From: an uncultured Candidatus Saccharibacteria bacterium
Lineage (GTDB): Bacteria; Patescibacteriota; Minisyncoccia; Phycocordibacterales; CSBR16-119
Assembly: GCA_964426385.1 (NCBI GenBank)
Contig: CAYRQF010000003.1
Coordinates: 22,938-86,937, forward strand
Direction of reading: 5' to 3'
DNA length: 64,000 nucleotides
The translations under genes and the position numbers were made by a program. Under the pieces are notes generated by a model that saw nothing but the letters and a program-made list of their open reading frames with translations, was not told where the DNA came from and did no database searches. Positions 12,201-62,690 of this stretch are shown here, piece after piece; positions within the stretch are counted from its first letter, which is position 1, and the number at the start of each line of letters is the position of its first letter.

Positions 12201-14989
12201 CGGGTTACGGTGCTGCGACAAGTGCTCAAGCGGACACTCAGCCACCAACCGTACCGACAGGTCTTGCTGTTACAGCAACTACAGCTTCAAGTATTTCGTT
12301 ATCTTGGAATGCTTCAACTGATGTTGGAGGAAGTATCGTACAAGGGTATCTCATTTATCGTAGCGCAACGAGCGGTGGTACATATGACACCATAGGAAGT
12401 TCTAGTGGTACTTCATATACTGATTCTGGTCTTGCCCCTAATACAACTTACTATTACAAGGTTACGGCAATTGATAACTCCCCTAACGGCAATCAGTCTG
12501 CTCAGACACAGTATGTTTCTGGTACAACTGCTGCTGTTACCGGAGGTGGCTCAGGACAGGTACTTGGTCTCATGGGTGTATACGCAGGACCAAACAACAG
12601 TGAGGACGTAACACCGGGAGCTAACCCAGCAGGTGTGTCAGACTACTACGTTGACTGCGTCGCTGGAAATGACAGTAATAATGGAACTTCAGCCGCTACT
12701 GCATGGAGAACACTAGAAAAATTCAACACTTCAGGCGCCGGCCAGATGCAACCAGGATCTAGAGCGTTCTTCAAGAGAGGATGTACGTTCTATAAAACAG
12801 ATGTATATCCGATGGGAATATATGATGGTGGAATCCTCAGGGTTTCTAACTCAGGAAATGCATCAAACTATGTAGAATATAGGGCCTACGGCACAGGAGC
12901 GGCTCCAGTATTCTCTGGCGCGGTACCTGTTACTGGCTGGACTCAACACCAGGGAAATATTTACAAGGCAAACATCGGAGCAAATAAGAACGTTCGATAC
13001 TTGTTTGCCAACAACTCTGGCCAGACACTCGCTCGCTTCCCAAACAAGAGTGCTGGTAATACAGTCTGGATGAAGACAGATCATATCACTAACCCTGGAG
13101 GAGTATCTCTCAATGTCGAAGACTCGTCTTCTACTGATGGAGCACTTCCAACCTCTACAGCAAATAACCTAGCTGGAGGTGAATATGCAGCTAGGTTTAT
13201 GAACTGGGCCTTCGTGGTTGCGCCGATTACAGCCCATTCAGGTCAGACCATTACCGTTTCATTCCAGGGTGGAATGAACCAGGTGCCATGCTACATACCA
13301 AACTGCTCTAACACCATTTATCCTGAAGCTGGCTGGGGATACTTCGTTCAGAACAAGCTATCCCTCCTAGACACCGCAGGTGAGTGGTACTACGACAATG
13401 CCTCTGGTCAACTCTACTTCTGGGCGCCAGGCGGAGTGAATCCGAGCACTATGACTGTAGAAGCGGCAGTTCACCGAAACGGTGTTCACATGCTCGGTGG
13501 TATCCATCATGTAAAGGTAAAGAACCTTGCGTTCGAGAAGTTCAACAAATTCAGTTACGGAAGTTCTGACAAGGGTGCGGCGGTGTTCATTCAAGACTGG
13601 GATGGATCGTCTGGAGTACTCAGTAACATCGTTGAGAATGTTGAGATCAAGAATACTCCTATCGGTGTTCGCGTCGAAGGTGTCGAATCAACAGGACCAT
13701 CAAACGGTAACAAAATACTCAATTCTTATATTCATGACATATTCGACATTGGAATGCTCTCATACGGTCTCGGCCACCTCTACCAGGGTAACGTGATTGA
13801 GAATATCGCTCTGGCCCCTGAGCTTGCCGCTGACACCGATGAGTGGAACCATATGTACGGCTTCGTCTCAACCGGTGGTAACGTTGACTTCATCGGCAAT
13901 ATAGTACGAAATATCGGTTACATCGGAGTTAACTATGTTCAGAACGGTGAAATCCGGAATAACTTAATCGAAAACATATCTCTAACTATTAACGATGGTT
14001 GTGGTATCTGCGCCGATGGAGCAGAGAATGATCTCCTCGTGAAGAGAAATGTTGTTAACCATGTGTACGGAAACATTGTTGGCCTACCTTCAACATTCGT
14101 TCATGCGACAGCGCTTGGCTCAGGTATATCAACAGGCGATAGGAATAGTATCGGTGGAATCTTCGAGGAGAATGTTGTTAACGATGCTGGAAACTCTGGT
14201 ATCACGTTCGACAACAATACCTTCTCGGCGAATATGCAGATGAGGAATAACACGATTTACACGAATCAGCCGGGTAACTCTAACGGTGCTAAGGGTATCT
14301 CAATGTATGATCAGTCTGTGGGCGTATATCACCCAGGAGAGAACAATGCCCAGTCACTCTATGACTTCGATTTGGGTCACAGTGTATACGGTAACAAGGT
14401 TTACACACTACATCAGAACAACAACAGTCTCTATGAGGCACGCGTTCTAACTTCTACAAGTGGTGGACATACAGACTTTGGAGATTATTGGGGCAATTAC
14501 TTCTTCCACCCATACTCTACTAACACAATCGTGAATTATCGACCAGCACCGTTGGTAACCACAGGAGACCTTATCTGGACTCTCACAAATGCACCAGTTT
14601 ATTCAACGGCAAGCACGAACACATCTTCCGGCACTGTGTCAACAGGAACAAAAGGTTATATCTCAGGTACTGAGTCAAACTACCGATGGTTCGTAACTTT
14701 CAACAACGGACAATCTGGCTGGATGAGGTCTTATGAAATCGCAATGGCAAAGAAGAACATCGCAGAATTCCAGCAGGTTTATAACCAGCCTCCATCCGGA
14801 CAGCCTCAGAACACACAGCGTGGAGTAGGGGATTCACTGCCGACGCTTTATGTCAACACAACTGGCTCTCCGATGTCCGCGAATATCGGTTCCGGTAAGT
14901 GCGGAAGTAATGGTCAGACACTCGCAAATCCTTACCCACTTAACACCTTTGCTGATGCGATTGTTCCAGAGATATGTAGCGAGCAATAA
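6221..14989 (+). CDS. giant secreted surface protein (2922 aa): N-terminal repeated beta-sandwich-like domains, dockerin-like Ca-binding repeat pair, at least 6 fibronectin-III domains, central Cys/His globular domain, C-terminal right-handed parallel beta-helix
   Basis: Signal peptide. FN3 signature xAPxNLxxxxxSxxxIxLxWT...NETGY repeated. DVNNDG...NDRD appears twice. NxxIxNN beta-helix rungs near the C-terminus. Confidence 0.9.
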   Translation: MKLQRAFFLVIALVFLVGFTVTVSGPGGASQRAQVTGAVSNQSIRGYSLVNADTDTIIGPLSDGQTIDLAELGTNHVNIVAETSPSVVGSVAFHLDDLARVVKNSAPYALGGHNNAGNFYAANLSVGDHTLKTQAFTLARARGLGSAVSEIRFSVVGGSPRSSGGQTQASSDSTTPISNTQQTHSTPGNVANVTGAEVQEIKSFTLINADTNQEIVAIENGAVLDIQNLGTTNLTIRANATPTNVGSVKFYLDSVAVRTDNLFPYTNVASTTTDDYRPWSFTPGQEYSITAIPFSLSRARGVEGTPLTVSFTIGQNPVGGHEPVVGRSMDPSVPAMGCLTATVTNDPNGGNNPGTITIDWPDVSGHPYYKAWRIQNGQVEVSTENQGGAVTYNSMTPGTWTIRVAFLEAGALPNTSADWGPESEISNLVISTSIPGPVTTTTCGQEPVESAQLKVFLGGAYNSSTGLMSTALNDANVIPLTEPYTGEGYQFTNGSGSSISSGVLNATGNDAIVDWVIVELRNQNNNLDIVSSRPALLQADGEVVGLNGTTPIFDSFSSGTYYVVVHHRNHLAVMTANPVNISNSVDLTNSTLWGTNAAKLVSGTKVLWPGDVNNDGLVKYTGGNNDRDPILQVVGSNTPNNVVTNAYAKADLNMDSTVKHTGTKNDRDIIFQSIGSVDPTVVNVEQLPQPSSTTITSIQVVNTQGVVQQTLSAGQTINIGTQNGGYGTSIALKANTSTSPVPGSVKYTLTRAGNTHENIDNAAPFSSHGDTGGNYTAWTSLQPGAYHLTALPYDGANATGASGTGADFDFVVVNNDTVAPLAPQNVSINYRSADEIRLSWSPSVGATNYQVVRTGNGQTFPLQSGTTFNDTTGLTSNGTFSYVVTAINSNGQVSPNSTSIDAPTLSPAFTAGTLVAPNANNTQVRALPENPTLVGTVNTTNNGSVVTGTSPSGHVVWVKGVTPAPDVRYLRTTFTSPALSGPGWVDQTKLITYVAPAAPLPPTNFTGSGTSTSNINLTWTDVATNETGYEVQRAALTDTNFTSPTTTTYGPNSNATSISTGLSAGTAYLFRIRAVSSTSGLNSVWVYSAPASISTQAAQTAPNAPTNLTGSASSTSQINLSWTDNANNETGFTLNRATAPDFSSGFVTTNVPANSPTAPSTVNHPVTGLAAGQTYYFQVKAINGTGDSAWATPNPLSVATQNVVAGTCNPGTVAPMLPPNNSPVNDLSRTNGANRSVQLSSAVTGANQITICWDTVAQRTISGSISVYRKSGYTSTSWGTAIATLANTETSYVDNSVTQGTYYEYKVSFSQSSTSSASGVSTNGTAAGYIATGINVPEESSRGKMALVIDNSMVTGTNGSAPTGGDSALMSKVNTLIDDLNADRWTVYPIYVGRGDTVASVKALIVAQNPAAIYLLGHVPVDKTHTMSPDGHGDQIPWSSDAYYSVSGTYGTTVAPVYQIGRVDAFKMEVFGAGNPSSDATAATAGEKTVIGNYLDKVHNYKIGSTTVQQRAIIKDALDHAYSGFTSAQNATVGAWSTFPSVVGLANTYVTNERGTLLTPSLQGSNDTYLLMLAQSGGQCDRDNDSATGTSAGFAAISGGAVFNMAGGSRFGSFDNCISFRENNFLKALLFGGKGMVSLYSLDHHWYLHSLAMGQNIGYATKVSMNNHSTQVYTPVSWYQQRNYNAFMSPLGDPSIRASYFTIPSTFTASGTAGNPINFSWSSVSGAEGYNVYKITSSAVTKLNSSMIASTSYTGSEIYTSGAKYMVTALDLTTSGSGGTYYRESLGKMTLTTGGGGGDLAAPTTPGSFAVSGTTASSVNLTWTASTGNPVGEAVTYKILRSSATNGTYTQVGTDTASPYSDTTVTAGNTYYYRITASDAASNTSQPAPSASTGISATTVDNQAPSAPAGLMSTAQTTGSITLTWNASTGNPVGETINYKVFRSTTANGTYTQTGSSTTNTTFTDSGLTAGTTYYYKVSATDASNNSSAQNPSSGYGAATSAQADTQPPTVPTGLAVTATTASSISLSWNASTDVGGSIVQGYLIYRSATSGGTYDTIGSSSGTSYTDSGLAPNTTYYYKVTAIDNSPNGNQSAQTQYVSGTTAAVTGGGSGQVLGLMGVYAGPNNSEDVTPGANPAGVSDYYVDCVAGNDSNNGTSAATAWRTLEKFNTSGAGQMQPGSRAFFKRGCTFYKTDVYPMGIYDGGILRVSNSGNASNYVEYRAYGTGAAPVFSGAVPVTGWTQHQGNIYKANIGANKNVRYLFANNSGQTLARFPNKSAGNTVWMKTDHITNPGGVSLNVEDSSSTDGALPTSTANNLAGGEYAARFMNWAFVVAPITAHSGQTITVSFQGGMNQVPCYIPNCSNTIYPEAGWGYFVQNKLSLLDTAGEWYYDNASGQLYFWAPGGVNPSTMTVEAAVHRNGVHMLGGIHHVKVKNLAFEKFNKFSYGSSDKGAAVFIQDWDGSSGVLSNIVENVEIKNTPIGVRVEGVESTGPSNGNKILNSYIHDIFDIGMLSYGLGHLYQGNVIENIALAPELAADTDEWNHMYGFVSTGGNVDFIGNIVRNIGYIGVNYVQNGEIRNNLIENISLTINDGCGICADGAENDLLVKRNVVNHVYGNIVGLPSTFVHATALGSGISTGDRNSIGGIFEENVVNDAGNSGITFDNNTFSANMQMRNNTIYTNQPGNSNGAKGISMYDQSVGVYHPGENNAQSLYDFDLGHSVYGNKVYTLHQNNNSLYEARVLTSTSGGHTDFGDYWGNYFFHPYSTNTIVNYRPAPLVTTGDLIWTLTNAPVYSTASTNTSSGTVSTGTKGYISGTESNYRWFVTFNNGQSGWMRSYEIAMAKKNIAEFQQVYNQPPSGQPQNTQRGVGDSLPTLYVNTTGSPMSANIGSGKCGSNGQTLANPYPLNTFADAIVPEICSEQ

Positions 14990-33373: not shown

Positions 33374-36300
33374 ATGAAAAAAATGAAAAACCTCTCCGAT
33401 GAATTCGTGATTTCTATCGGACTACTCCTTATGTCCTTTTTTATTTTTCATGTCGTGATATTTCCCAGCATAATTCGAGAATCAAACGTCGCGGTGGTTT
33501 CACTCTCTTCGACTAGAAATATTTACAATATGACTCCTTCGGATAATTTTCCAGGAGTCTTCAATTTTAATTACAAGTACGAAGGTTCTCGTGCTAAGAG
33601 TGGAGATCTAAAAAAATTTGATTTCGCTATAGTGTCACTTGATGAGAAAAAAGCTTATGCTGAGCTACCCGAAGGGAAGAATCTCGGTGTTATAAGAGAC
33701 ACGTGGGGTTATCCAGTTAAGGAAAATGCATTTATGAAAACATCTCGCATTCAGGATAAGAAGAATGGGGATGGTCGCGCCGATGAAGATCCTGATGTGC
33801 CCGGGCTCGTAAACTGTAGATCTAATGAGGGTGTTACTGGTTATTTTAAAGCATACTTTGAAGACGTAGCATTGGAAAACGGTGTTGGTTACGATGACTT
33901 GGCACTTGGGGAAGGTAGGAGAGAAGAGGTGTGCCAGGTGCTTCAGGATATTGCGGCACTCATAAAGCTCGATGAAACTGACGTGACCCCAGAGATACTA
34001 TTTACCGATAGTAGTAATATTTCAATCTCATCTTTGGCGGCGGCCTCGGCCTATATGGGGTATTATTCTGTGGGTCCGGATAATGGATCTCTTCACAGGC
34101 ACATCATTTCCCGCAACGACCCTACGCCTGGGGATGGTATGTTTGATGCTTTTGTTATGACGAACTTTACCAATGTCTCATGGGATGTTGATTCTGATCT
34201 TAATACTGGTACATACGATTTTTATACTGTGATATACCATGAAATCATGCACGCGCTTGGCTTCCGAGGTCTCCTGCCTGCAACTGTTACAGGTAGTGGT
34301 GTTGCTCACCAGCACGATACCTTTGATTATTTTAGTTACAAAGACGTCGCTCTCGCAGATCCATTCATTGACCCTGTTACCGCGCAACTCGAGGCTCCGG
34401 TTGGCGCACCATCTCCTTGGTATATAAGTAACAATGTGGTCTATCGAGGAATAAAAAATTTAATTGGCGCTTTACCTGATGACGCACACCCCGTCTATAG
34501 CCCAGTTACATGGGAGCAAGGAGCTTCCTTGTCACACTTTGATATGTCTAGAGCTTCCGGTCAGACATATGTCATGAATCCCTCTATCGCAACAAATACT
34601 GAAAGGGATATACATATTCATGAGAAAGAGGTTCTGTGTCATCTCGGGTATCAGGTAGAAGGTGTTACCGGGTGTTTACAAGAGACTCCGTTTGCAGTTG
34701 ACGATATTGTGGATTTTGAAGTAGGTGATTCGGTGTGTATTAAGCCTCTTGTTAATGATGAAGGCTTCGCTGGACAGGTAGTAGGGCAATCATTGTCTCC
34801 TATCTCACTCGAGTCGGGCGATAATCTAACATATTATTCTGGTGCTGACTGTACGGGTTCGACAGCTACTACATTTGAGAATGCGAGGTCTGTTCTTTTT
34901 GATTCTGCTTCTGTCGACGTCGTGCGCACACTTCGTTATGAGATAAAAGATACAGTGTCGAATAGAATATCTAACCAAGCCCTGATAGTGCTGTCGTCTT
35001 GTGGTGTTGCCGCTGAAGAATATTTATGTAATGGAGATTTTGAATCAGGATATATCGACACAGGGGATATCGGCAGTATTCAGGTTATGGAATGTCCTTC
35101 AGTGTTCCCAGACATTTGTCCATTTTGGGGGTCTCCGGATATTTATAATAGAGATTTTGATTTTACTTCTTATTGGCTGTATCAGGGGCCAACCGATACG
35201 CATAATGGTGCACCAAACAATAGGTATCTATTCGGCGGCGGTTCGTCAGGTGGTGAAATGGTAAGTGTTGGGGGAGAGATTTATCGAAACGAAAGAGCTT
35301 ATCTGAAAACCAAAGCCCCTCTGCCACCTGGAGAATATATAATCTCATGGTATGGCGTATATGCTGGAGGTAACCTAACTCAAGTCGATAACGCCTCAGT
35401 TAACGCATATATAACTAGTGAGATACCGATAACTCCTACTGATGTAGAGGCTCGTTATATATCAAATCCTGAAGATGTGTTGGTGAATGTTCCCGTGGAT
35501 ATGGTTACTAGCTTTGTCGTGAATGATCCTACTAATTGGAGATACTACGAAACCACTTTAACCATACCGGATAACAATCTCGATTATGAATACCTGATAC
35601 TCGAACCAAAAAGAGTCGCCATCGTTGAAACAGACAATTTTGGCGGGATTAGAAATGTTTTTGACGACGTTAGTATTAGGCTCGTAAGTGAAAATCTCGC
35701 AGATGATAGTGTTACAGGTATTGTCTATGAAGATGAAAACCAAGATGGTGTTAGGCAAAACGGCGAAACAGCCCTTGGCGGTGTTTCCGTTCACCTGTTT
35801 GATGTTGGCAGTACAACACCACTTCAAACTGTTGTCACACAAGACTTGCCTGACGCTGGGGCATATGGTTTCTCAAATATTTCAGATGGAACATATAATG
35901 TAGCACTGGATGGGGAGTCGCTATATTCAATCATTACCGAACCTTTGATGAATAATATAATTCCGGGATATTCACATGCTCGTCAGGTTGTTGTGTCGAA
36001 TGGAGTTGTTTCATCTGGTAATGATTTCGGTGTGGTGTTAGGTGCAAACAATACAGATTTTGGTTCTGCAAATCTACACATAAAGAAAGCCCTAATAGAC
36101 TCGTCGCTATCAATAATAGATAGAAACATAACTTGGCAGGTAGAAGTAACTAACTTTGGTCCCGATACGGCAACAGCGGTAAATATCATTGACGCTATAC
36201 CTGTTTCGCTCGAATATTACGCTCATGCAACCAATTATCCATATACTTATAACCCTGTTACAGGTATATGGCAGATTCCTGAACTTGGGGTGGGGGAAAC

Positions 36301-36472
36301 AGCTTACATAAATATAACAATGAGGGTGCCTCAAGGGACTTGCGGGCTAAAAACAAACATGGCCAACATTTTGGATATGGATCAGACAGATTCGGATACA
36401 TCAGATAATACTGCAATTGCGAATATCAAGCTCAAGAATTGTGCCACAACCGCCCCAGGTCTGCGGAAATAG
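33374..36472 (+). CDS. secreted/anchored zinc metalloprotease (zincin HExxH) with SdrD-B-like and DUF11 repeat domains
   Basis: YHEIMHALGF motif. VTGIVYEDENQDGVRQNGE (SdrD B-like). DUF11-like ITWQVEVTNFGPDTATAVNIID. Confidence 0.75.
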   Translation: MKKMKNLSDEFVISIGLLLMSFFIFHVVIFPSIIRESNVAVVSLSSTRNIYNMTPSDNFPGVFNFNYKYEGSRAKSGDLKKFDFAIVSLDEKKAYAELPEGKNLGVIRDTWGYPVKENAFMKTSRIQDKKNGDGRADEDPDVPGLVNCRSNEGVTGYFKAYFEDVALENGVGYDDLALGEGRREEVCQVLQDIAALIKLDETDVTPEILFTDSSNISISSLAAASAYMGYYSVGPDNGSLHRHIISRNDPTPGDGMFDAFVMTNFTNVSWDVDSDLNTGTYDFYTVIYHEIMHALGFRGLLPATVTGSGVAHQHDTFDYFSYKDVALADPFIDPVTAQLEAPVGAPSPWYISNNVVYRGIKNLIGALPDDAHPVYSPVTWEQGASLSHFDMSRASGQTYVMNPSIATNTERDIHIHEKEVLCHLGYQVEGVTGCLQETPFAVDDIVDFEVGDSVCIKPLVNDEGFAGQVVGQSLSPISLESGDNLTYYSGADCTGSTATTFENARSVLFDSASVDVVRTLRYEIKDTVSNRISNQALIVLSSCGVAAEEYLCNGDFESGYIDTGDIGSIQVMECPSVFPDICPFWGSPDIYNRDFDFTSYWLYQGPTDTHNGAPNNRYLFGGGSSGGEMVSVGGEIYRNERAYLKTKAPLPPGEYIISWYGVYAGGNLTQVDNASVNAYITSEIPITPTDVEARYISNPEDVLVNVPVDMVTSFVVNDPTNWRYYETTLTIPDNNLDYEYLILEPKRVAIVETDNFGGIRNVFDDVSIRLVSENLADDSVTGIVYEDENQDGVRQNGETALGGVSVHLFDVGSTTPLQTVVTQDLPDAGAYGFSNISDGTYNVALDGESLYSIITEPLMNNIIPGYSHARQVVVSNGVVSSGNDFGVVLGANNTDFGSANLHIKKALIDSSLSIIDRNITWQVEVTNFGPDTATAVNIIDAIPVSLEYYAHATNYPYTYNPVTGIWQIPELGVGETAYINITMRVPQGTCGLKTNMANILDMDQTDSDTSDNTAIANIKLKNCATTAPGLRK

Positions 36473-36587: not shown

Positions 36588-36767
36588 ATGAAATTCTTCA
36601 CATACATCAAAGAGTCATTCGGGGAGGTGCGCCACATCAAATGGCCGACTCGCCAGGAAACGATACTTTTCACATTGGCGGTTATCGTCATCTCACTCAT
36701 CGTTGCCTACTATCTCGGATTCCTCGATATCGTTTTCGCCAAAGGACTAAAACTAATCATCGAATAA
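36588..36767 (+). CDS. secE: preprotein translocase subunit SecE (59 aa)
   Basis: Manual translation: MKFFTYIKESFGEVRHIKWPTRQETILFTLAVIVISLIVAYYLGFLDIVFAKGLKLIIE. Position immediately upstream of nusG. Not in the ORF track because it is under 60 aa. Confidence 0.8.
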   Translation: MKFFTYIKESFGEVRHIKWPTRQETILFTLAVIVISLIVAYYLGFLDIVFAKGLKLIIE

Positions 36768-36768
36768 T

Positions 36769-37317
36769 ATGGCTAAACAGGAATTATCAGGTGAAAGAAA
36801 TTGGTATGCTATCCATACATATGCTGGATACGAGAATGCCGTTCTACGAAATCTAAAACAGCGTATTGAGTCTCTCGGTATGCAGGACAAAATATTTGAA
36901 GTAATCGTTCCGACAGAGAAAAATATCAAGATAAAAGCTGGTAAGCGCGTTGAAGTAGAGGAGAAGATTTATCCTGGTTATGTCCTCGTTGATATGATCG
37001 TGAATGATGACTCATGGTACGTAGTTCGTAACACTCCACGTGTTACCGGGTTCGTCGGGGCAGGGGTCAACCCAGTTCCAGTCTCGAAGGCTGAGATAGA
37101 CATGCTTCTCGGCCGTATGAGGAAGGACGAAGGGGCAAAACATGCCATCGACCTCGTTATCGGCGAGACTATTTCTATCGTTGACGGCCCATTCAAGGAG
37201 CTCGAAGGCCGAGTTAACAATATCGACAAAGAAAGGGGTAAAATCAATGTTCTCGTGTCCATGTTCGGTCGTGAGACTCCGGTAGAACTCGACTTCTTGC
37301 AAGTAAGGAAGATATAA
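36769..37317 (+). CDS. nusG: transcription antiterminator NusG
   Basis: NGN and KOW domains (WYAIHTYAGYE...). Confidence 0.95.
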   Translation: MAKQELSGERNWYAIHTYAGYENAVLRNLKQRIESLGMQDKIFEVIVPTEKNIKIKAGKRVEVEEKIYPGYVLVDMIVNDDSWYVVRNTPRVTGFVGAGVNPVPVSKAEIDMLLGRMRKDEGAKHAIDLVIGETISIVDGPFKELEGRVNNIDKERGKINVLVSMFGRETPVELDFLQVRKI

Positions 37318-37335
37318 GCTAATCTATTACCCATT

Positions 37336-37767
37336 ATGGCATCAAAGAAAAAGATAGTTAAAAACGTCAAACTACAGATCGAAGCCGGTCGTGCGACCCC
37401 AGCTCCGCCTATTGGTCCTGCCATCGGTCAGGCCGGTGTTAACATCGGTACATTCGTGACCGAGTTCAACGAGCGAACCAAGTCTATGGCTGGTCAGGGT
37501 AAGGTCTCCGTCAAGCTCCGTGTATATGAGGACCGCTCATACGACTTCGATGCCAAGACCCCTCTTACAGCCCCTCTCATCCTCAAAGCTGCTGGTATCG
37601 ACAAGGGTTCATCCAAGAACGCTACCAAGCGAGCAGGAAGCATCTCTAGAGCCAAGCTCGAGGAGATCGCTGAGATGAAGCTCAAGGATCTGTCGGCGAA
37701 CGACATCCCGGCTGCGATGAAGATTCTCGAAGGACAGTGCCGATCGATGGGAATCGAAGTCAAGTAG
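37336..37767 (+). CDS. rplK: 50S ribosomal protein L11
   Basis: PPIGPAIGQAGVNI motif. Confidence 0.95.
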   Translation: MASKKKIVKNVKLQIEAGRATPAPPIGPAIGQAGVNIGTFVTEFNERTKSMAGQGKVSVKLRVYEDRSYDFDAKTPLTAPLILKAAGIDKGSSKNATKRAGSISRAKLEEIAEMKLKDLSANDIPAAMKILEGQCRSMGIEVK

Positions 37768-37792
37768 CGCTCCGCAAAATATCTATTTGAAA

Positions 37793-37905
37793 AGGCTCCG
37801 GAAATCGGGGCTTTTTCAACTCCTCGAAAACGCAAGCGCCGGCTTTTGTCTAAACGACAAAACCGGTTACGTTCTCGGACTTTCAAAAGCCCCGATTTCC
37901 TTCGT
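37793..37905. repeat. nested long inverted repeat / stem-loop
   Basis: Outer 16-bp stem GGAAATCGGGGCTTTT / AAAAGCCCCGATTTCC. Inner imperfect stem ccggcttttgtc...gacaaaaccgg. Confidence 0.6.
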
Positions 37906-37985
37906 TTTAATTTTCAAATGTATATTTTGCTCCGCTTAGGGGGGAAAGGGGTGGACCTTGCCAAGTAGATGTTTTTTGTCTAAGG

Positions 37986-38813
37986 TTGGGTCAGGAAACG
38001 AAACGAAAACCAGAACCTTCCATGAGAAGTACAGAAACTAAGACTCTCGTCTTTCCGGGACTTCCACATTACGGGGTCTGGCGGACACTCCAGATCGAAC
38101 ACGAGGCGGTGATACGTTGGGGGCCATATCGTGAGTGCAATACGCGCTTGCACGAGCAAACAAACCTGCACCACATCGTCAGCCTGCTGCGCATCAGTGA
38201 TCTGTACCTGCGTAACCTTCTCGGGTACGTGGTGTTCAACCTCGGTATGGTGAACACAGTGGCACAATGCCACGAGGATGGAGAAGCGGTACTCGGCAGG
38301 GATGTGAACTACAATGTGAAGACTGGTGCAGATGACTTCGCAGAGTGGGTGGCATTCCGGGATATGTTGAGTGGGGCACTCAAGGAGATGAAGCAGAGAG
38401 AGGAGCTACATAAGGCTTTTCTCCTTCAGTTCATTCTCGGCGACGTGTCTCATTTTGAGCAAGACCCCGAGGCGTTTGCCATCATCCAGGATCTCCAGCA
38501 TTACAGTTTGCTGGAGGCCAGACTCTTCAACGCCCTCGAGCGTCTCGATTATATCTACTACGCATGGCAGGCGTATGAGGACACTGGGGACGTGGTGATC
38601 CTGACACATGTGCTTCGCAGACATGTCCCTAAACTGAAGGAGTATGCATCCGGCATGATCGACGGCTTCAGCAAGGTGATGTGGACACCAGAGCAGCAGT
38701 CGCAAGCCGAGGAGATCATCGAGATGTTCAGGGAGATGCCTGGTCCGGACGGAGAGGAGATGTGGCCGGCCTACGAATGGGCAATTAAGAACGGCCACTG
38801 GAAGCCGAGATGA
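37986..38813 (+). CDS. hypothetical protein, family not recognised
   Basis: 275-aa ORF with distinct GC-rich codon usage (CTG/GTG/CAG-rich). Strong hairpin terminator follows. Confidence 0.6.
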   Translation: MGQETKRKPEPSMRSTETKTLVFPGLPHYGVWRTLQIEHEAVIRWGPYRECNTRLHEQTNLHHIVSLLRISDLYLRNLLGYVVFNLGMVNTVAQCHEDGEAVLGRDVNYNVKTGADDFAEWVAFRDMLSGALKEMKQREELHKAFLLQFILGDVSHFEQDPEAFAIIQDLQHYSLLEARLFNALERLDYIYYAWQAYEDTGDVVILTHVLRRHVPKLKEYASGMIDGFSKVMWTPEQQSQAEEIIEMFREMPGPDGEEMWPAYEWAIKNGHWKPR

Positions 38814-38827
38814 GACAAACACACGAC

Positions 38828-38860
38828 GCAAAGGGGTCCTGAGAAGGACCCCTTGCCTTT
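38828..38860 (+). terminator. rho-independent terminator
   Basis: aaggggtcc-tgagaa-ggacccctt hairpin followed by a T-run. Confidence 0.6.
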
Positions 38861-39083
38861 TGGGGGAATGTTATGTAATATGCTGACCGAACCTTTAACA
38901 CCATCTATCATGGCAAGCAGTAAGAACAAGCGTCTCGCGACCAATGTTTACGTGACTCGTGGTCACAATACGGTAGGGGGCTCTTCGAGACTTCATGTCC
39001 GTGTGACGAATGGCACGGATCAAGACAGGCGCTCTTTCCACGAAATGCTCGCGCACGCCAAGTTCATTGTTGGAGCGAAGTAG
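38853..39083 (+). CDS. small hypothetical protein (60-76 aa)
   Basis: ORF in the same GC-rich island. The start is uncertain (MLCNM, MLTEP or MASSK). Confidence 0.35.
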   Translation: MPFGGMLCNMLTEPLTPSIMASSKNKRLATNVYVTRGHNTVGGSSRLHVRVTNGTDQDRRSFHEMLAHAKFIVGAK

Positions 39084-39104
39084 GCCGTAGGCCGCTTCAG
39101 TCGA

Positions 39105-39134
39105 AAAGGACCGCCTTGCGCGGTCCTTCTTGCT
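39105..39134. terminator. bidirectional stem-loop terminator
   Basis: ggaccgc-cttg-gcggtcc hairpin flanked by A and T runs. Confidence 0.55.
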
Positions 39135-39136
39135 AG

Positions 39137-39628
39137 CTACTTCTTTTTATAGTCGACGAAATAGTATTCAGCGCCATCGGCTGAGCGGAATGGTCCGACG
39201 CGGTTCGATTCAATAAAATCTTTTTTATATTCAGGGAAATAAACATCAGCATCTTTATGTCCCTCGATCTCGGTTAGACATAGGATGTCGGTGTAGGGGA
39301 GCGCCTCCTCGAAGATCCGAGCTCCGCCGATGACGGCGATGTTCTCATCTATCTTTTTTCCATACTCGAGAGCTTCCTCTATCGTTTTGACCACCACCGC
39401 TCCCGGGAACTCACCATGATCGAGAGACGTAACCACGATATTTGTCCGATTTGGCAAGGGGCGGAATTTCTCGGGTAGGGACTCCCAAGTACGCCTGCCC
39501 ATGATGACTGGGTGCCCCAGGGTTAGGTCCTTGAAACGGCGCATATCATCAGGGATCTTGTATAAAAGGTCGTTTTTGTGCCCGAGGCCTCGGTCAGACT
39601 TTTGGATGGATGAAACGATATAAATCAT
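39137..39628 (-). CDS. folA: dihydrofolate reductase
   Basis: DHFR pattern MIY...GLG..N.L....P.D...FK..T.G..VIMGRRTWESLP. Confidence 0.9.
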   Translation of the reverse strand: MIYIVSSIQKSDRGLGHKNDLLYKIPDDMRRFKDLTLGHPVIMGRRTWESLPEKFRPLPNRTNIVVTSLDHGEFPGAVVVKTIEEALEYGKKIDENIAVIGGARIFEEALPYTDILCLTEIEGHKDADVYFPEYKKDFIESNRVGPFRSADGAEYYFVDYKKK

Positions 39629-39691: not shown

Positions 39692-40369
39692 ATGGCTATA
39701 TCAAAAGAGATCGAAATCAAGTGCCTCCTCGGCGAGGAAGCTAACGCTAACGCATTTCGTGAGAAAGTTATTGCTAAATATCCTGACGCGAAAGTGTTGC
39801 CGAAGACTAGCCAGCTCAATCATTATTTTATTAATGGAGATTTTAAATTGCTCCAAGAAAAGATCACACCATTTTTAAATGACGAGCAGAATAAAACACT
39901 CGCAGAAATAATTGAGAAGGGAAATAATTTCTCACTCCGTACTCGTTCAGTCGACGGCAGGATTCTGCTCGTCGTGAAGGCTTCTCTCGGAGCTGACACC
40001 AGCGCTAACGGCGTCTCAAGGATGGAGTTCGAAGAATCGGTTAACATGACTCTCGCCGAACTCGACAAGCTTCTCGAAGATGTAGGATTTAAATATCAGG
40101 CCAAGTGGTCTCGCGAGCGCGTCGAGTATGTCCTCCCAAATATGAATATTACTCTCGACAAGAATGCCGGTTACGGATACCTGACAGAGTTCGAGACGGT
40201 GATAGGGGACGATGCCGATGTCGAGGCGACTCGCGCGACTCTCATGCAGGAGATAGAGTCATTCGGGCTCGAGGAACTTCCGCAGGAGCGTATAGAGCGG
40301 ATGTTTGCATATTATAACGAGCACTGGCCCGAGTATTATGGGACGGAGAAGACTTTTACTATTAAATAA
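39692..40369 (+). CDS. CYTH-domain (triphosphate tunnel metalloenzyme) protein
   Basis: EIEIKCL N-terminal CYTH signature. The ORF-track start is a GTG at 39644; the internal Met at 39692 is preferred. The start offset is uncertain by 1 nt. Confidence 0.65.
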   Translation: MAISKEIEIKCLLGEEANANAFREKVIAKYPDAKVLPKTSQLNHYFINGDFKLLQEKITPFLNDEQNKTLAEIIEKGNNFSLRTRSVDGRILLVVKASLGADTSANGVSRMEFEESVNMTLAELDKLLEDVGFKYQAKWSRERVEYVLPNMNITLDKNAGYGYLTEFETVIGDDADVEATRATLMQEIESFGLEELPQERIERMFAYYNEHWPEYYGTEKTFTIK

Positions 40370-40375
40370 ACTCAC

Positions 40376-40972
40376 ATGTTTCTATCAGACGTTGATATAA
40401 AAAAGGGTGTAAAAAACGGTTCTATCGTCATCAAGCCTTTTTCCGAGAAGAAGTTACAGCTCGCGAGTTACGACGTCACCCTCGATAACGAGTTCAAGGT
40501 CATCGATAGGCACGACACGATATTCGTTGATCCGGTGAACAAGATCTTCCCGAAGACCAAGACGACGATAGTCAAAGATGGCGATGCGTTCGTTCTGCAT
40601 CCAGGTGAGACTGTCCTAGGGAAGCAGAGAGAATTCATCGGAGTTGATCACAGCCACCTCATCCTTCTCTCCGGCAAGTCTTCGCTCGCGCGTATCGGTA
40701 TCGCCGTACACACAACAGCTATGCTATTTAACCCGGGACACCATTTCTATCCAACGTTCGAACTCCTCAACACCAGCAATGTCCCAGTTATCCTCCGTCC
40801 AGGTATGGAGATCGCACAGATAATCTTCGCCAAGCTCACCAGCGAGTCGAGCAAGAACTACGAAGGCGTCCTAGGAATCGGTCGATTCGATAGTCAGAAC
40901 TCGGACCACTTCAGAATCAAGAAAATCCTTAAAAAAGCTAAGACTAAGAAACCTGGCCGGTCAGGCAAATAA
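40376..40972 (+). CDS. dcd: dCTP deaminase
   Basis: Matches the Dcd/dUTPase-like fold pattern. Confidence 0.85.
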   Translation: MFLSDVDIKKGVKNGSIVIKPFSEKKLQLASYDVTLDNEFKVIDRHDTIFVDPVNKIFPKTKTTIVKDGDAFVLHPGETVLGKQREFIGVDHSHLILLSGKSSLARIGIAVHTTAMLFNPGHHFYPTFELLNTSNVPVILRPGMEIAQIIFAKLTSESSKNYEGVLGIGRFDSQNSDHFRIKKILKKAKTKKPGRSGK

Positions 40973-40973
40973 T

Positions 40974-41960
40974 ATGGAAAAAAGACATCCAGAATATCAA
41001 TACTTAGATCTTCTCCAGGAAATCATGGACGGAGGATTCGAGAAACAAGTGTTCGGCACTGATAAATCTGTGAAGTCAGTGTTCGGTCGGATGATGAGAT
41101 ATGATCTGTCCAAAGATTTTCCACTACTTACAACGAAGAAAGTTTTCTGGAAGGGTATCGTGCATGAACTCATCTGGTTTTTGAAGGGCGATACAAATAT
41201 TAAATACCTAGCCGATAGAGGCGTGCACATCTGGGATGACTGGCCATACAAAGACTATAAGCTTGCTGTGGAGAAGGGCGAGGCACCTGCTATGACTCAG
41301 GAGGAATTTATTAACAAGATCAAAGAGGGGGCGGTAGACAGCGAGTTCGTCAAAAAGTGGGGAGAGCTCGGTCCGGTCTATGGACGCCAGTGGCGTAAAT
41401 GGCCGGCCGCAGATGGGCGTATCATCGACCAGCTTTATTGGGCTATCGAGAAGACCAAGAAGTACCCCGACAGGAAACACGTCGTGGTGTCCGCCTGGAA
41501 CCCAGAGTACATATACGAGATGGCGAAGCCTGGCACATCGATGGCTATACCGCCATGTCATACACTGTTCAATATCAATGTGACGAACGGCCGGCTCTCG
41601 CTCGCGCTATATCAACGCAGTGCAGATATGTTTCTCGGCGTACCATTTAACATCGCGAGTTATTCGCTCCTAACAGTTATCCTGGCGCAGGTGACAGGAT
41701 ATCAACCTGGAGAGTTCGTGCATTTCCTGGGCGATACCCATATCTATAGTGACCACTATGAACAGGTCAAAGAACAGCTCTCGCGCGAGCCTCGTCCATT
41801 CCCAAAGGTTCGTATAAACCCAGAAAAGAAAAATATTGATGACTTCGTCTTCGAAGATTTTGAGCTCCTAGACTATGATCCGAACGAGTCTATCAAGGCT
41901 GACATCACAGTTGTGGGAGGATTCAACGAGAAAGATCGAGATAGTTTCACCAAGAAGTAG
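40974..41960 (+). CDS. thyA: thymidylate synthase
   Basis: PPCHTLFNINV with the active-site Cys. Other ThyA motifs present. Confidence 0.95.
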   Translation: MEKRHPEYQYLDLLQEIMDGGFEKQVFGTDKSVKSVFGRMMRYDLSKDFPLLTTKKVFWKGIVHELIWFLKGDTNIKYLADRGVHIWDDWPYKDYKLAVEKGEAPAMTQEEFINKIKEGAVDSEFVKKWGELGPVYGRQWRKWPAADGRIIDQLYWAIEKTKKYPDRKHVVVSAWNPEYIYEMAKPGTSMAIPPCHTLFNINVTNGRLSLALYQRSADMFLGVPFNIASYSLLTVILAQVTGYQPGEFVHFLGDTHIYSDHYEQVKEQLSREPRPFPKVRINPEKKNIDDFVFEDFELLDYDPNESIKADITVVGGFNEKDRDSFTKK

Positions 41961-42511: not shown

Positions 42512-43774
42512 ATGTCCAAGAGCTATATAGAACAACAAGACCCCGAAGTCTTCGCAGCTATCGAGGGCGAGGAGAAGCGCGAATTCGAGGGACTCGAGCT
42601 CATACCGTCCGAGAACTATGTGTCGCTCGCTGTTCGCGAGGCGAATGGCTCGGTTTTCACCAACAAATACTCAGAGGGTTACCCGGGACGCCGCTACTAT
42701 GGCGGACAGGAGTTCACTGACGTCGTCGAGAATCTCGCTATCGAGCGTGCTTGTAAACTTTTCAACTGCAAATTTGCGAACGTTCAGCCACTATCCGGTG
42801 CTCCGGCGAACATGGCAGTATATGCGGCACTACTTGAGCCTGGCGACACAGTGCTAGGGATGGATCTGTCGCACGGGGGACACCTCACACACGGGCACCC
42901 GGTGACATTCCCGGCGAAAGTTTTCCGATTCATTCGTTACAAAATGAAAGATATCGAAACAGGAGAGATCGATTATGATGAGCTCCGCGAAACGGCACTA
43001 CGAGAGAGGCCGAAAATAATTCTCGCCGGATTTTCTGCGTATCCTCGGAATCTCGACTACAAGAAATTCGTCGACATTGCTCGAGAAGTCGGCGCCATCA
43101 CCGTCGCTGATATGGCGCATATCGCTGGACTCATCGCCGGGGGAGCGCTAGAGAACCCATTTGACGCAGGGTTTGATGTTATCACGACTACTACTCACAA
43201 AACTCTCCGAGGTCCACGTGGAGGGATGATACTCGTCCGAGAAAGTGAGGAGATCATCCAGAAAATCAACAAAGCCATTTTCCCAGGTCTACAGGGCGGT
43301 CCACATATGAATGTCATCGCCGCCAAAGCTGTCGCCTTCGGCGAGGCTTTGAAGCCATCGTTTGCAGAGTACGCCAAGCAGATATTACTCAATGCGAAAG
43401 CTATGGAGGCAGTATTTGCCCGTGAGAACGTCCGCATGATCACAGGCGGAACGAGCAATCACCTAATCCTCGCTGATGTTTTCGGCTCGCTCGGGGTAAC
43501 AGGCAAGGAGGCTCAGACCGTGCTCGATGAGGTGGGTATTACACTCAACATGAACGCCATCGCAGACGATGTGCGTAAGCCTATGGATCCGTCGGGTATC
43601 AGATTCGGCACGCCCGCGATAACAACTCGAGGATTCAAGGAAACAGAATGCGCGCGTGTTGCGGAGATCATGATCGAAGTCCTAAGGAATAAAGATAACG
43701 CTGATATGAAGGCTAAAGCCAAGTCAGAAATCAAATCCCTCGCCGCTAAATTCCCGATACCTGAGACTTTCTAA
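42512..43774 (+). CDS. glyA: serine hydroxymethyltransferase
   Basis: Canonical SHMT motifs including the PLP-Lys region TTTTHKTLRGPRGG. Confidence 0.95.
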   Translation: MSKSYIEQQDPEVFAAIEGEEKREFEGLELIPSENYVSLAVREANGSVFTNKYSEGYPGRRYYGGQEFTDVVENLAIERACKLFNCKFANVQPLSGAPANMAVYAALLEPGDTVLGMDLSHGGHLTHGHPVTFPAKVFRFIRYKMKDIETGEIDYDELRETALRERPKIILAGFSAYPRNLDYKKFVDIAREVGAITVADMAHIAGLIAGGALENPFDAGFDVITTTTHKTLRGPRGGMILVRESEEIIQKINKAIFPGLQGGPHMNVIAAKAVAFGEALKPSFAEYAKQILLNAKAMEAVFARENVRMITGGTSNHLILADVFGSLGVTGKEAQTVLDEVGITLNMNAIADDVRKPMDPSGIRFGTPAITTRGFKETECARVAEIMIEVLRNKDNADMKAKAKSEIKSLAAKFPIPETF

Positions 43775-62234: not shown

Positions 62235-62690
62235 TTTTGAAATATAGAAATTGGTGATTCACCCGAAGAGATCTCCTGGGCTGTCGCTCCAGGAACAAGA
62301 CTTTTAGGGTATGCGGGTCACTCCGTTAAACTGAACGAACTGCAGTTTCTGGTGGGTTCTCGGCGGGGAGTCGTGCGCGTTGGCGAACAGTCGCACGCTC
62401 TCCTCTGGGAACCATGTTCTTCAATCAACACCCTTCGGGGTTCATCATAAGTGAGCGTGCGTCTGTTCCTGCAGGGAAAACGGGCTTGGTGGTGGCCTTG
62501 CCATCCTTGCGACGATGCATTTCTCGCCCACGAGCCTAGCGACCATGTCGCTGGGCTCGTTCCTTTTTTACCTAATATTGCGCCCATTTACTATTACCAA
62601 GCCTTCTGATAGTATGACCCTAACGTTTCGTTCGACTGCCTTGAAATTACAGGCCGTCGCTTGGTCCGATACGATGCGTTTTTTCTTTAT
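62235..62690 (+). ncRNA. candidate structured non-coding RNA, unidentified class; strand uncertain
   Basis: ~450 nt with no credible ORF in any frame. GC clearly above flanks. Multiple perfect hairpins (CGAGCC-AGCGAC-catg-GTCGCT-GGCTCG; ACCC-UUCG-GGGU). Ends in a T-run. TTGACA-17-TATCTT promoter-like sequence at 62207-62235. Confidence 0.3.

Follow-up and report, generated by a model that had tools for sequence, protein, structure and literature searches.

A predicted HD-domain phosphohydrolase gene with divergent, apparently exchanged alleles between rplK and folA in Saccharibacteria

Gene X is an open reading frame (ORF) of 263 codons that follows rplK in a 64-kb stretch of contig CAYRQF010000003.1 from an uncultured Candidatus Saccharibacteria bacterium. 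The whole stretch was analysed and is called the window; positions are given in its numbering. Structure prediction and profile comparisons place X as a divergent member among the HD-domain phosphohydrolases of the YfbR/HDDC2/OxsA (HD_3) type, from which it differs by about 70 additional amino acids (aa) that form C-terminal helices. The explanation that we consider probable as a whole is that X is an HD_3 hydrolase of deoxythymidine monophosphate (dTMP) metabolism, which occupies a resident slot next to rplK and is represented in the window by an exchanged allele.

RESULTS

Gene X is predicted to encode an HD-domain protein

X and the sequence elements that directly border it are the following:
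38022-38813, + strand: X, 263 aa, pI 5.4
37974-38021, + strand: X leader, which holds TTTTGTCTAAGGTTGGG and an A/C-rich stretch and has no obvious Shine-Dalgarno sequence
38831-38854, + strand: X terminator hairpin with a 10-bp perfect stem and a 4-nt loop, part of the exchanged cassette

An earlier interpretation, made from the letters of this DNA and below called the sequence-only reading, had described a 275-aa ORF at this place. The gene is real, but ATG 38022, which is supported by homologues and gene calls, is a likelier start than TTG 37986. The same reading recognised no protein family for X or for the small ORF downstream of it. As far as direct scans are concerned this was correct: Pfam, PHROGs and PADLOC gave no usable match for either protein, X did not match the family hidden Markov models (HMMs) PF13023, PF12917 and PF01966 at E≤0.1, curated thresholds not being reached, and a sequence search of the Protein Data Bank (PDB) with a shallow 11-sequence profile found no match. 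The ten homologues of X that were retrieved by a word-indexed search (36-42% identity) had no Pfam domains. For X the statement fails when deeper profiles and structure are taken into account.

An exhaustive profile search revealed 325 representative clusters related to X, 283 of them at E<1e-10. The AlphaFold (AF2) model of X, calculated on the 11-sequence alignment, is all-helical, with a predicted local distance difference test (pLDDT) score of 87 and a predicted template modelling (TM) score (pTM) of 0.86. When this model was compared with the PDB by Foldseek, the best 20 matches were all of HD_3 type, with probabilities of 0.99-1.0 and target TM values of 0.48-0.66; the matches comprised human HDDC2, 3KH1, 1XX7 of P. 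furiosus, OxsA, Lin2634, E. coli YfbR and PH0347. In a sample of 50 diverse members of the family, Pfam HD_3 was matched by 17 (E≤0.1, best 7e-14), YfbR-like by 8 and HD by 8. Because 17 of the 50 relatives match HD_3 and X itself does not, the link between X and HD_3 is transitive through the family. The profile made from the 50 sequences matches OxsA (2e-5), PH0347 (1.4e-4) and 1XX7 (7e-4), and the hhalign comparison with E. coli YfbR (taken from NC_000913) gave an E value of 1.4e-4.

The hhalign alignment pairs R32W33 of X with R18W19 of YfbR, H51 with H33, H84E85 with H68D69, E88 with E72, D94 with D77 and K100 with K82, and in the OxsA alignment D176 of X falls on the distal metal-binding Asp. 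H51, H84, E88 and D94 are invariant (50/50 family members); position 32 is R in 49/50 and position 33 is W in 46/50. Position 85 is D in 37/50 and E in 13/50, the E group being the Saccharibacteria-like clade to which X belongs, and position 176 is D in 40/50 and E in 10/50. The metal tetrad residues H51, H84 and D176 are present in X, with the dyad Asp represented by Glu85, a conservative change. On the model, X would be a metal-dependent HD phosphohydrolase, in whose clade His-Glu stands in place of His-Asp. The motifs LLQF, E..F..LE..DY..YA, GDVVIL.HVLRN and WT are specific for the X family.

Two other identities were considered and ruled out. X is not a substitute for, or a divergent form of, ribosomal protein L1: it is acidic (pI 5.4) and has an HD fold; according to the literature, Saccharibacteria keep L1. 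Nor is it an all-alpha dimeric deoxyuridine triphosphatase (dUTPase) or MazG-like pyrophosphatase, the L. major dUTPase appearing in the Foldseek comparison at rank 33 with a probability of 0.09.

It is extremely improbable that the region is a non-coding, GC-rich structured RNA with accidental ORFs, as might be suggested by the strong hairpins on either side, a GC content that much of the window does not reach, and the lack of a direct family match for either ORF. X has hundreds of protein homologues with conserved catalytic motifs and a confidently predicted fold, and the six differences between the coding sequences (CDS) of X in the window and in the comparison locus L007 are five synonymous and one non-synonymous change (comparison loci are designated by L and a number). 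Rfam gave no credible match at the gathering threshold in the whole window or at E≤10 in 37700-39200. For X the non-coding interpretation is already refuted; it may apply to the 57-aa small ORF alone.

X occupies the same slot in relatives

The genes that flank X in the window are:
36588-36767: secE
36769-37317: nusG
37336-37767, + strand: rplK (ribosomal protein L11), Pfam Ribosomal_L11_N and Ribosomal_L11, E about 1e-23
39137-39628, - strand: folA (dihydrofolate reductase), Pfam DHFR_1, 4e-42
39692-40369, + strand: CYTH-domain protein, Pfam CYTH, 3.9e-7
40376-40972, + strand: dcd, assigned as DCD
40974-41960, + strand: thyA, assigned as Thymidylat_synt
42512-43774, + strand: glyA, assigned as serine hydroxymethyltransferase (SHMT)

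The assignments of dcd, thyA and glyA come from gene calls of syntenic relatives with 73-97% identity. The upstream border of the X slot is rplK, the last gene of the secE-nusG-rplK block, and the downstream border is folA, which is convergent with X. Two statements of the sequence-only reading are confirmed here, namely that the expected rplA is absent after secE-nusG-rplK and that folA is on the opposite strand. An E. coli query detected no rplA in the 64-kb window.

The genomes closest to the window are metagenome-assembled genomes (MAGs) of Candidatus Saccharibacteria. An X homologue follows rplK in L001, L005, L007, L009, L010, L012, L017, L021, L025 and L028 (in L009, L021 and L028 rplK-X is seen), and no examined relative with a contig that extends as far as rplK lacks an X homologue there. 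Longer contigs run on into folA or other dTMP genes. The order secE-nusG-rplK-X-folA(-)-CYTH-dcd-thyA-glyA is shared by the window, L001/L008, L007, L010 and L025, and folA adjoins X in L001, L006, L007, L010, L014 and L025. L005 and L017 have the arrangement nusG-rplK-X-deoxycytidine monophosphate (dCMP) deaminase-MazG-like ... folA, which in L005 runs on into thyA and SHMT, and L006 has X-folA-dcd-thyA-tmk-SHMT. Among members with about 30% identity the metabolic association is kept without rplK. In L014 the order is dCMP deaminase-MazG-Vut_1-F420 ligase-like-X-folA-thyA, and in L019 and L026 it is ThyX-DCD-X; X tracks dTMP genes also outside Saccharibacteria.

The earlier view that X was inserted into a conserved operon does not agree with these arrangements, in which relatives carry an X homologue at the rplK slot. 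X would rather be a resident gene of Saccharibacteria with a fixed slot between rplK and folA.

In L017 an HTH_3/Gp49 (HigA/HigB-like) toxin-antitoxin pair (7653-8252) lies between the MazG-like gene and folA, an indication that this neighbourhood accepts accessory inserts.

The X allele has deviant codon usage

The G+C content at third codon positions (GC3) of X, 0.66, is the highest among the 51 ORFs of at least 100 aa in the window (others: mean 0.49, sd 0.07). When synonymous codons for X's own amino acids were redrawn from the pooled usage of the window, the expected GC3 was 0.496±0.029, whereas X has 0.676 (z=6.1, reached in 0/5000 simulations). The bias is towards G-ending codons: the GTG share is 0.72 in X, 0.20 in pooled window genes and 0.12 in translation genes, the corresponding values for CTG are 0.29, 0.11 and 0.02, and GGG, CCG, GAG and AAG are likewise enriched. 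The codon preference of X is unlike that of the ribosomal-protein, fusA and nusG genes. The foreign-looking composition described in the sequence-only reading was thus reproduced by the codon-usage comparison, with GC3, CTG and GTG as described; CAG (0.67 vs 0.69) and CGC (0.19 vs 0.19), which had also been listed, are not enriched. In 7 of the 11 loci compared, no other gene exceeds X in GC3. That reading had also named, as a point that would speak against acquisition, relatives with the same genes at the same locus in native composition: the relatives do share the X locus, but in most of them X is compositionally deviant too.

X alleles have a history different from that of their flanks

The identity matrix and blastn comparisons revealed phylogenetic discordance of X with its flanks. 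The clearest details come from L012 and L007. L012 is a contig of the Joint Genome Institute (JGI), whose NusG and RplK proteins are 98% identical to those of the window and whose DNA from secE to the X leader is 92% identical. Its X allele, however, encodes a 276-aa protein with a canonical HDDGE motif, which has 34% aa identity to X, and there is no similarity at the DNA level. The breakpoints are at the start codon and just past the terminator: L012 and the window agree in the leader as far as the start codon, the leader forming the 5′ boundary of the exchanged cassette, and its allele brings its own, different terminator hairpin. The last 296 bp of L012, comprising the linker, the small ORF and its terminator, are 100% identical to the window. 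In L007 the relation is reversed. Its DNA is 78.6% identical to the window upstream and 82.8-85.9% identical downstream, and the X cassette (37974-38901), in which the 38831-38854 hairpin is kept, is 98.4% identical. In L001 and L010 the flanking proteins are 73-93% identical (FolA 61-65%), and X just 37-42%. The X allele types are discrete, with ≤45% identity between types (32-45%).

A similar pattern was seen with thyA. Although L007 is the closest relative, its ThyA (12943-13962) has only 57% identity to that of the window (40974-41960), and the ThyA of L025 (5530-6483) has 55%; with the more distant L001 and L010 the identity is 87-88%. These identities indicate that thyA, too, is a xenologously replaced gene.

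The simplest reading of the sequence comparisons is repeated xenologous replacement of X alleles in a thymidylate neighbourhood prone to recombination, with the conserved flanks serving for homologous recombination, and not the insertion of an island. No integrase, transposase or other mobility gene was called next to X in the window or in the relatives. The foreign-looking composition would be accounted for, because the allele was acquired by such recombination; direction of transfer and donor are what we infer. The horizontal acquisition put forward in the sequence-only reading is retained in this sense, as the difference between the history of X and that of its flanks indicates lateral exchange.

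We regard it as very improbable that there was no lateral exchange and that X descended vertically, evolving very fast under relaxed or diversifying selection, with a GC3 excess that is gene-specific or due to GC-biased gene conversion. Such descent would fit the low identity between all types (32-45%), the recurrence of the GC3 excess in many lineages and the generally fast evolution of proteins in bacteria of the candidate phyla radiation (CPR). It cannot, however, yield an X of 34% aa identity between flanks that are 92% identical in DNA and 100% identical downstream, nor an X of 98.4% nucleotide identity amid flanks of 79-86%. The sharp breakpoints at the CDS edges and the like replacement of thyA also argue for xenologous replacement of X alleles.

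The contig L011 is 99.3% identical to the window, and all 25 differences lie outside 37177-39547. This difference-free 2.4-kb segment spans rplK, X, the small ORF and most of folA, and is consistent with a recent sweep or recombination.

Possible role of X in dTMP metabolism

The substrate-binding and catalytic residues R18, W19, E72 and D77 of YfbR map to R32, W33, E88 and D94 of X in the hhalign alignment. R18, W19 and D77 reportedly hold the monophosphate and the deoxyribose, a role ascribed to them by Zimmerman et al. in 2008. The partners that recur around X belong to the cycle between deoxyuridine monophosphate (dUMP) and dTMP. A passage of PMC8475336 that cites Weiss 2007 names E. coli YfbR as the enzyme that hydrolyses dCMP in the pathway from deoxycytidine to thymidylate, and the YfbR homologue of trypanosomes, an HD 5′-nucleotidase, prefers dCMP, dUMP and dTMP (PMC5098729). 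From the recurrent partners and the role of YfbR we infer a substrate and a physiological role for X, which would therefore be a deoxynucleotide phosphohydrolase in pyrimidine/dTMP metabolism. By analogy, X is most likely a 5′-deoxynucleotidase acting on dCMP, dUMP or dTMP. It could work with Dcd, ThyA, FolA and GlyA to route or balance the dUMP/dTMP pool, in a role resembling that of E. coli YfbR in feeding the deoxycytidine route to thymidylate.

The main alternative, which is unlikely although not negligible, is that a protein of the same fold performs a step hydrolysing dUTP or deoxycytidine triphosphate (dCTP), being dUTPase-like, OxsA-like in stepwise action, or a deoxynucleoside triphosphate (dNTP) triphosphohydrolase. 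X would then act after Dcd as a source of dUMP for ThyA, or clean up the dNTP pool. The product of Dcd is dUTP, and an E. coli query detected no trimeric dut in the 64-kb window; this search covered the window alone, and some DCDs are bifunctional. OxsA, the best sequence-profile match, hydrolyses tri-, di- and monophosphates, and DatZ-type dATPases and SAMHD1-like dNTPases are found lower in the fold lists. On the other hand, the monophosphate and deoxyribose residues R18, W19 and D77 of YfbR are kept in X as R32, W33 and D94, and X co-occurs with dCMP deaminase and a MazG-like pyrophosphatase, which would already supply dUMP. We prefer a monophosphate of the dTMP pathway as the substrate.

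Several points weigh against X as a resident HD_3 enzyme of dTMP metabolism with exchanged alleles. X has no significant direct sequence match in Pfam, NCBIfam or PDB. The E values of the Foldseek matches are modest (6e-3 and above) and the query TM is about 0.5, the latter because X is ~70 aa longer than the templates. This allele has Glu in place of the dyad Asp, and its activity is therefore uncertain. HD_3 relatives span monophosphatases (YfbR), stepwise triphosphate hydrolases (OxsA) and dNTP triphosphohydrolases (DatZ). L022, L023 and L024 (28-35% identity) lie in unrelated contexts with no dTMP genes adjoining. All comparison loci are metagenome contigs, among which assembly chimeras are possible; the pattern, however, recurs in several independent assemblies. 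The GC3 excess in many lineages could reflect a recombination-associated GC bias or a gene-specific property, and not the composition of a donor.

The protein with a CYTH domain (triphosphate tunnel metalloenzyme) between folA and dcd is kept in the window, L001, L007, L010 and L025 with 73-92% identity. A triphosphate-acting enzyme is unusual within a dcd-thyA operon, and could bear on the apparently missing dUTP-hydrolysing step.

The small ORF is not a partner of X

Between X and folA the following elements are found:
38910-39083, + strand: small orphan ORF, 57 aa, basic, pI 11.4
38853-38881, + strand: promoter-like segment TTGCCT, 17 nt, TAATAT, read from the sequence within the linker 38850-38901
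39106-39128, both strands: terminator hairpin, 9-bp perfect stem, common to the small ORF and the convergent folA

A small ORF had been noted here with a length of 60-76 aa. The ORF exists, but the 57-aa version from ATG 38910 is the most plausible one; the 76-aa version starts inside the terminator/promoter-like segment. It was also correctly noted that both ORFs end in a hairpin, at 38831-38854 (10 bp) and 39106-39128 (9 bp), both perfect, and the latter is kept in L007. The linker 38850-38901 differs little or not at all between the window, L007 and L012. Elements resembling TTGCmT-17-TAATAT also lie ahead of different variable small ORFs in L001 and L010; the 38853-38881 segment is a candidate promoter, and the consensus scan lists 38883-38911 instead.

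Among 5.8 billion proteins the small ORF had identical copies only, and an exact-pattern search of JGI metagenomes for the linker between X and the small ORF found nothing. Its single-sequence AF2 model (pLDDT 73) has a beta-beta-alpha topology with no fold match, and the RNA fold of 38886-39136 is unremarkable (z -1.6). The segment is absent from L001, L010, L005 and most relatives. In L012 the small ORF is 100% identical while X is replaced, whereas in L007 X is kept and an unrelated 59-aa ORF occupies the position of the small ORF. Since either of the two can be exchanged while the other stays, the small ORF is not a partner of X, and the two-gene module of the sequence-only reading dissolves into two independently inherited segments, of which the small ORF has no homologues. 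The small ORF can be regarded as a separate, strain-variable segment with its own promoter-like element and a putative coding sequence.

These data bear on the proposal that X and the small ORF form a horizontally acquired two-gene cassette, related to defence or toxin-antitoxin systems and inserted in a ribosomal operon. The deviant codon usage, the hypervariable and laterally exchanged alleles and the separate terminators of the two ORFs would suit such a cassette. Moreover, nucleotide-depleting enzymes are known defence effectors, and PADLOC gave a marginal match of X to PDC-S15 (E 0.005). This match, however, was obtained with 1/50 family members, X recurs at this locus in all examined relatives with contigs that extend to the rplK side and tracks dTMP genes, and the small ORF, which is without homologues, segregates independently of X. 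There is no PHROG match; neither tblastn against 50,697 phage records nor an IMG/VR scan found relatives that would point to phage origin, and the fold matches of X in BFVD are weak HD proteins only. The window proved to be free of tRNA and tmRNA genes, and none of the genes called beside X is an integrase or has another mobility function. With a marginal PADLOC match and with no PHROGs match, phage relative or conserved partner gene, we consider a defence or toxin-antitoxin cassette very unlikely and favour an exchanged allele of a metabolic gene.

A related thought, prompted by the strain-level hypervariability of a nucleotide hydrolase and in our view unlikely, is that X is a target or effector of a conflict over the pyrimidine deoxynucleotide pool: phages or the host bacterium would attack or exploit this pool, and recombination would shuffle very divergent allele types that the population retains. 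X might then clear phage-modified deoxynucleoside mono- or triphosphates, or escape phage-encoded inhibitors, and the rplK-folA interval, in which linkers are conserved and small ORFs with their promoters vary, may together with its long hairpin be a dedicated recombination hotspot.

A long hairpin follows rplK

The segment between rplK and X contains one further element:
37774-37930 (157 nt), + strand: long nested hairpin, directly 3′ of the rplK stop codon

A nested palindrome of 113 bp had been noticed here; it was found again and is larger, with extra outer arms of 20 nt that bring it to 157 nt. The outer arms are 37774-37793/37911-37930, the middle arms 37800-37828/37872-37900 hold a perfect 16-mer, GGAAATCGGGGCTTTT, and its complement, and the inner stem is formed by 37839-37850/37856-37866. 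Read from the sequence, the middle stem is followed by TTCGTTTTAATTTTC. The hairpin is predicted to fold far more stably than shuffled versions (z -5.7), and no inverted repeat in the 64 kb is longer. Its loop is above the size limit of the consensus scan, which for this reason does not report it.

Comparable hairpins follow rplK in L007, L001 and L010 (folded, z -11.5 to -12.8) and, from inspection of the sequence, in L025. The hairpins of the relatives start with GCAAA (GTAAA in L025) and end with TTTGC, their stem sequences differ, and CGCTCCG and GCTCCGC border most of them. The arms of the outer stem (21 bp) were chosen because they are inverted repeats; in this stem both partners differ in 14/21 pairs, and pairing is kept in 95% of cells. 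After rplK in L005 and L009, which are more distant, there is a simple terminator instead of the long hairpin. We think that the hairpin is probably an elaborated terminator or another 3′ structure of the rplK transcript; it would act at the RNA level as a conserved 3′ element of the secE-nusG-rplK unit. Alternatively, it may be a DNA-level palindrome or a relic of a miniature inverted-repeat transposable element (MITE).

The inner hairpins in L001 (5281-5401), L010 (5297-5431) and L025 (~2045-2160) share a TGTAAAC loop and differ in their stems. Those of L001 and L010 also share an [A/C]TTCAAAA loop, the order of the two inner hairpins being swapped between these loci. The window carries a related TGTCTAAACGACA stem-loop.

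Relatives carry differing inserts between the hairpin and X: an NlpC/P60 gene in L007 (9290-9901), a 142-aa ORF in L001/L002 (L002 2543-2971), a 104-aa ORF in L010 (5503-5817), and in L025 (~2170-2770) a small ORF together with an inverted relic of the folA 3′ end (aa 120-149, E 2e-5). The inserts of L001 and L010 each follow a TTGCmT-17-TAATAT promoter-like element, and that of L025 follows a TTGACT-type element. This interval, which has no insert in the window, is therefore a variable region.

Other features of the window

The window has a GC content of 46%. Upstream of X the gene order is rpsL-rpsG-fusA, a large DUF11/SdrD surface protein, then secE-nusG-rplK. The DUF11/SdrD-B surface protein (33374-36472) diverges more than its neighbours: its identity is 75% in L007 (4684-7788; neighbours 91-100%) and 43% in L010 (800-3853), and it is missing from L001, a pattern typical of a fast-evolving surface protein. 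The second-longest inverted repeat of the window (62385-62468) has 23-nt arms that are 83% complementary and 38 nt apart. It is situated in an intergenic gap of ~520 bp before a likely rpsS6/ssb block and had no Rfam match at E≤1.

DISCUSSION

Through this analysis a family of roughly 300 clusters, which is repeatedly linked to ThyA or ThyX, to DCD or dCMP deaminase, and to dihydrofolate reductase (DHFR), receives a testable identity, that of an HD deoxynucleotide hydrolase. Neither Pfam and NCBIfam nor PHROGs and PADLOC assign the clade of X directly. De novo nucleotide synthesis is lacking in Saccharibacteria and other CPR bacteria, which live on the supply of their hosts; management of the deoxynucleotide pool is therefore central to their biology. 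The locus also offers a clean natural case of allele replacement at 34% identity within otherwise near-identical strains, and the neighbouring thyA behaves alike, which suggests that gene exchange at the thymidylate module of these reduced genomes is more active than expected.

X is a divergent member of a well-known enzyme superfamily and not a new kind of system. With YfbR (PF12917, PF13023 HD_3) and HDDC2 it shares the all-alpha HD fold, HDDC2 (4L7E) being the top Foldseek match and YfbR (2PAU) having a target TM of 0.66, and the aligned motifs R-W, H, H-[D/E]-x-x-E, D, K and distal D. With YfbR it may also share the link to thymidylate synthesis that is stated in the cited passage of PMC8475336. 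Unlike these proteins, which have about 190-200 aa, X has 263 aa with extra C-terminal helices and family-specific motifs, contains His-Glu and has no significant direct HMM match. X further differs in lying within a dTMP gene cluster and in its hypervariable, laterally exchanged alleles, and its enzyme activity is a prediction.

The profile match to OxsA of Bacillus megaterium (PDB 5TK6-5TKA) covers the RW...H...HD..E...K region and the helix with the distal D. OxsA, however, strips phosphates stepwise from a triphosphate in the biosynthesis of a nucleoside antibiotic, whereas X has another genomic context and an extra C-terminal region, the identity being about 14%.

In its evolution X resembles the xenologous displacement known for ThyA/ThyX and DHFR, where versions that are highly divergent, or not orthologous at all, take up one conserved position in the pathway, and L019 and L026 have ThyX in place of ThyA. 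In contrast to these enzymes, X is an accessory HD hydrolase that is replaced between near-identical strains with breakpoints at the CDS borders. As a predicted HD nucleotide hydrolase with strain-level hypervariability and lateral exchange, X also recalls the nucleotide-depleting anti-phage enzymes. SAMHD1-like and dGTPase structures are weak, partial fold matches to X. Unlike the dCTP deaminase, dGTPase and SAMHD1-like defence enzymes, X is without support from defence models and is found in a housekeeping context instead of defence islands.

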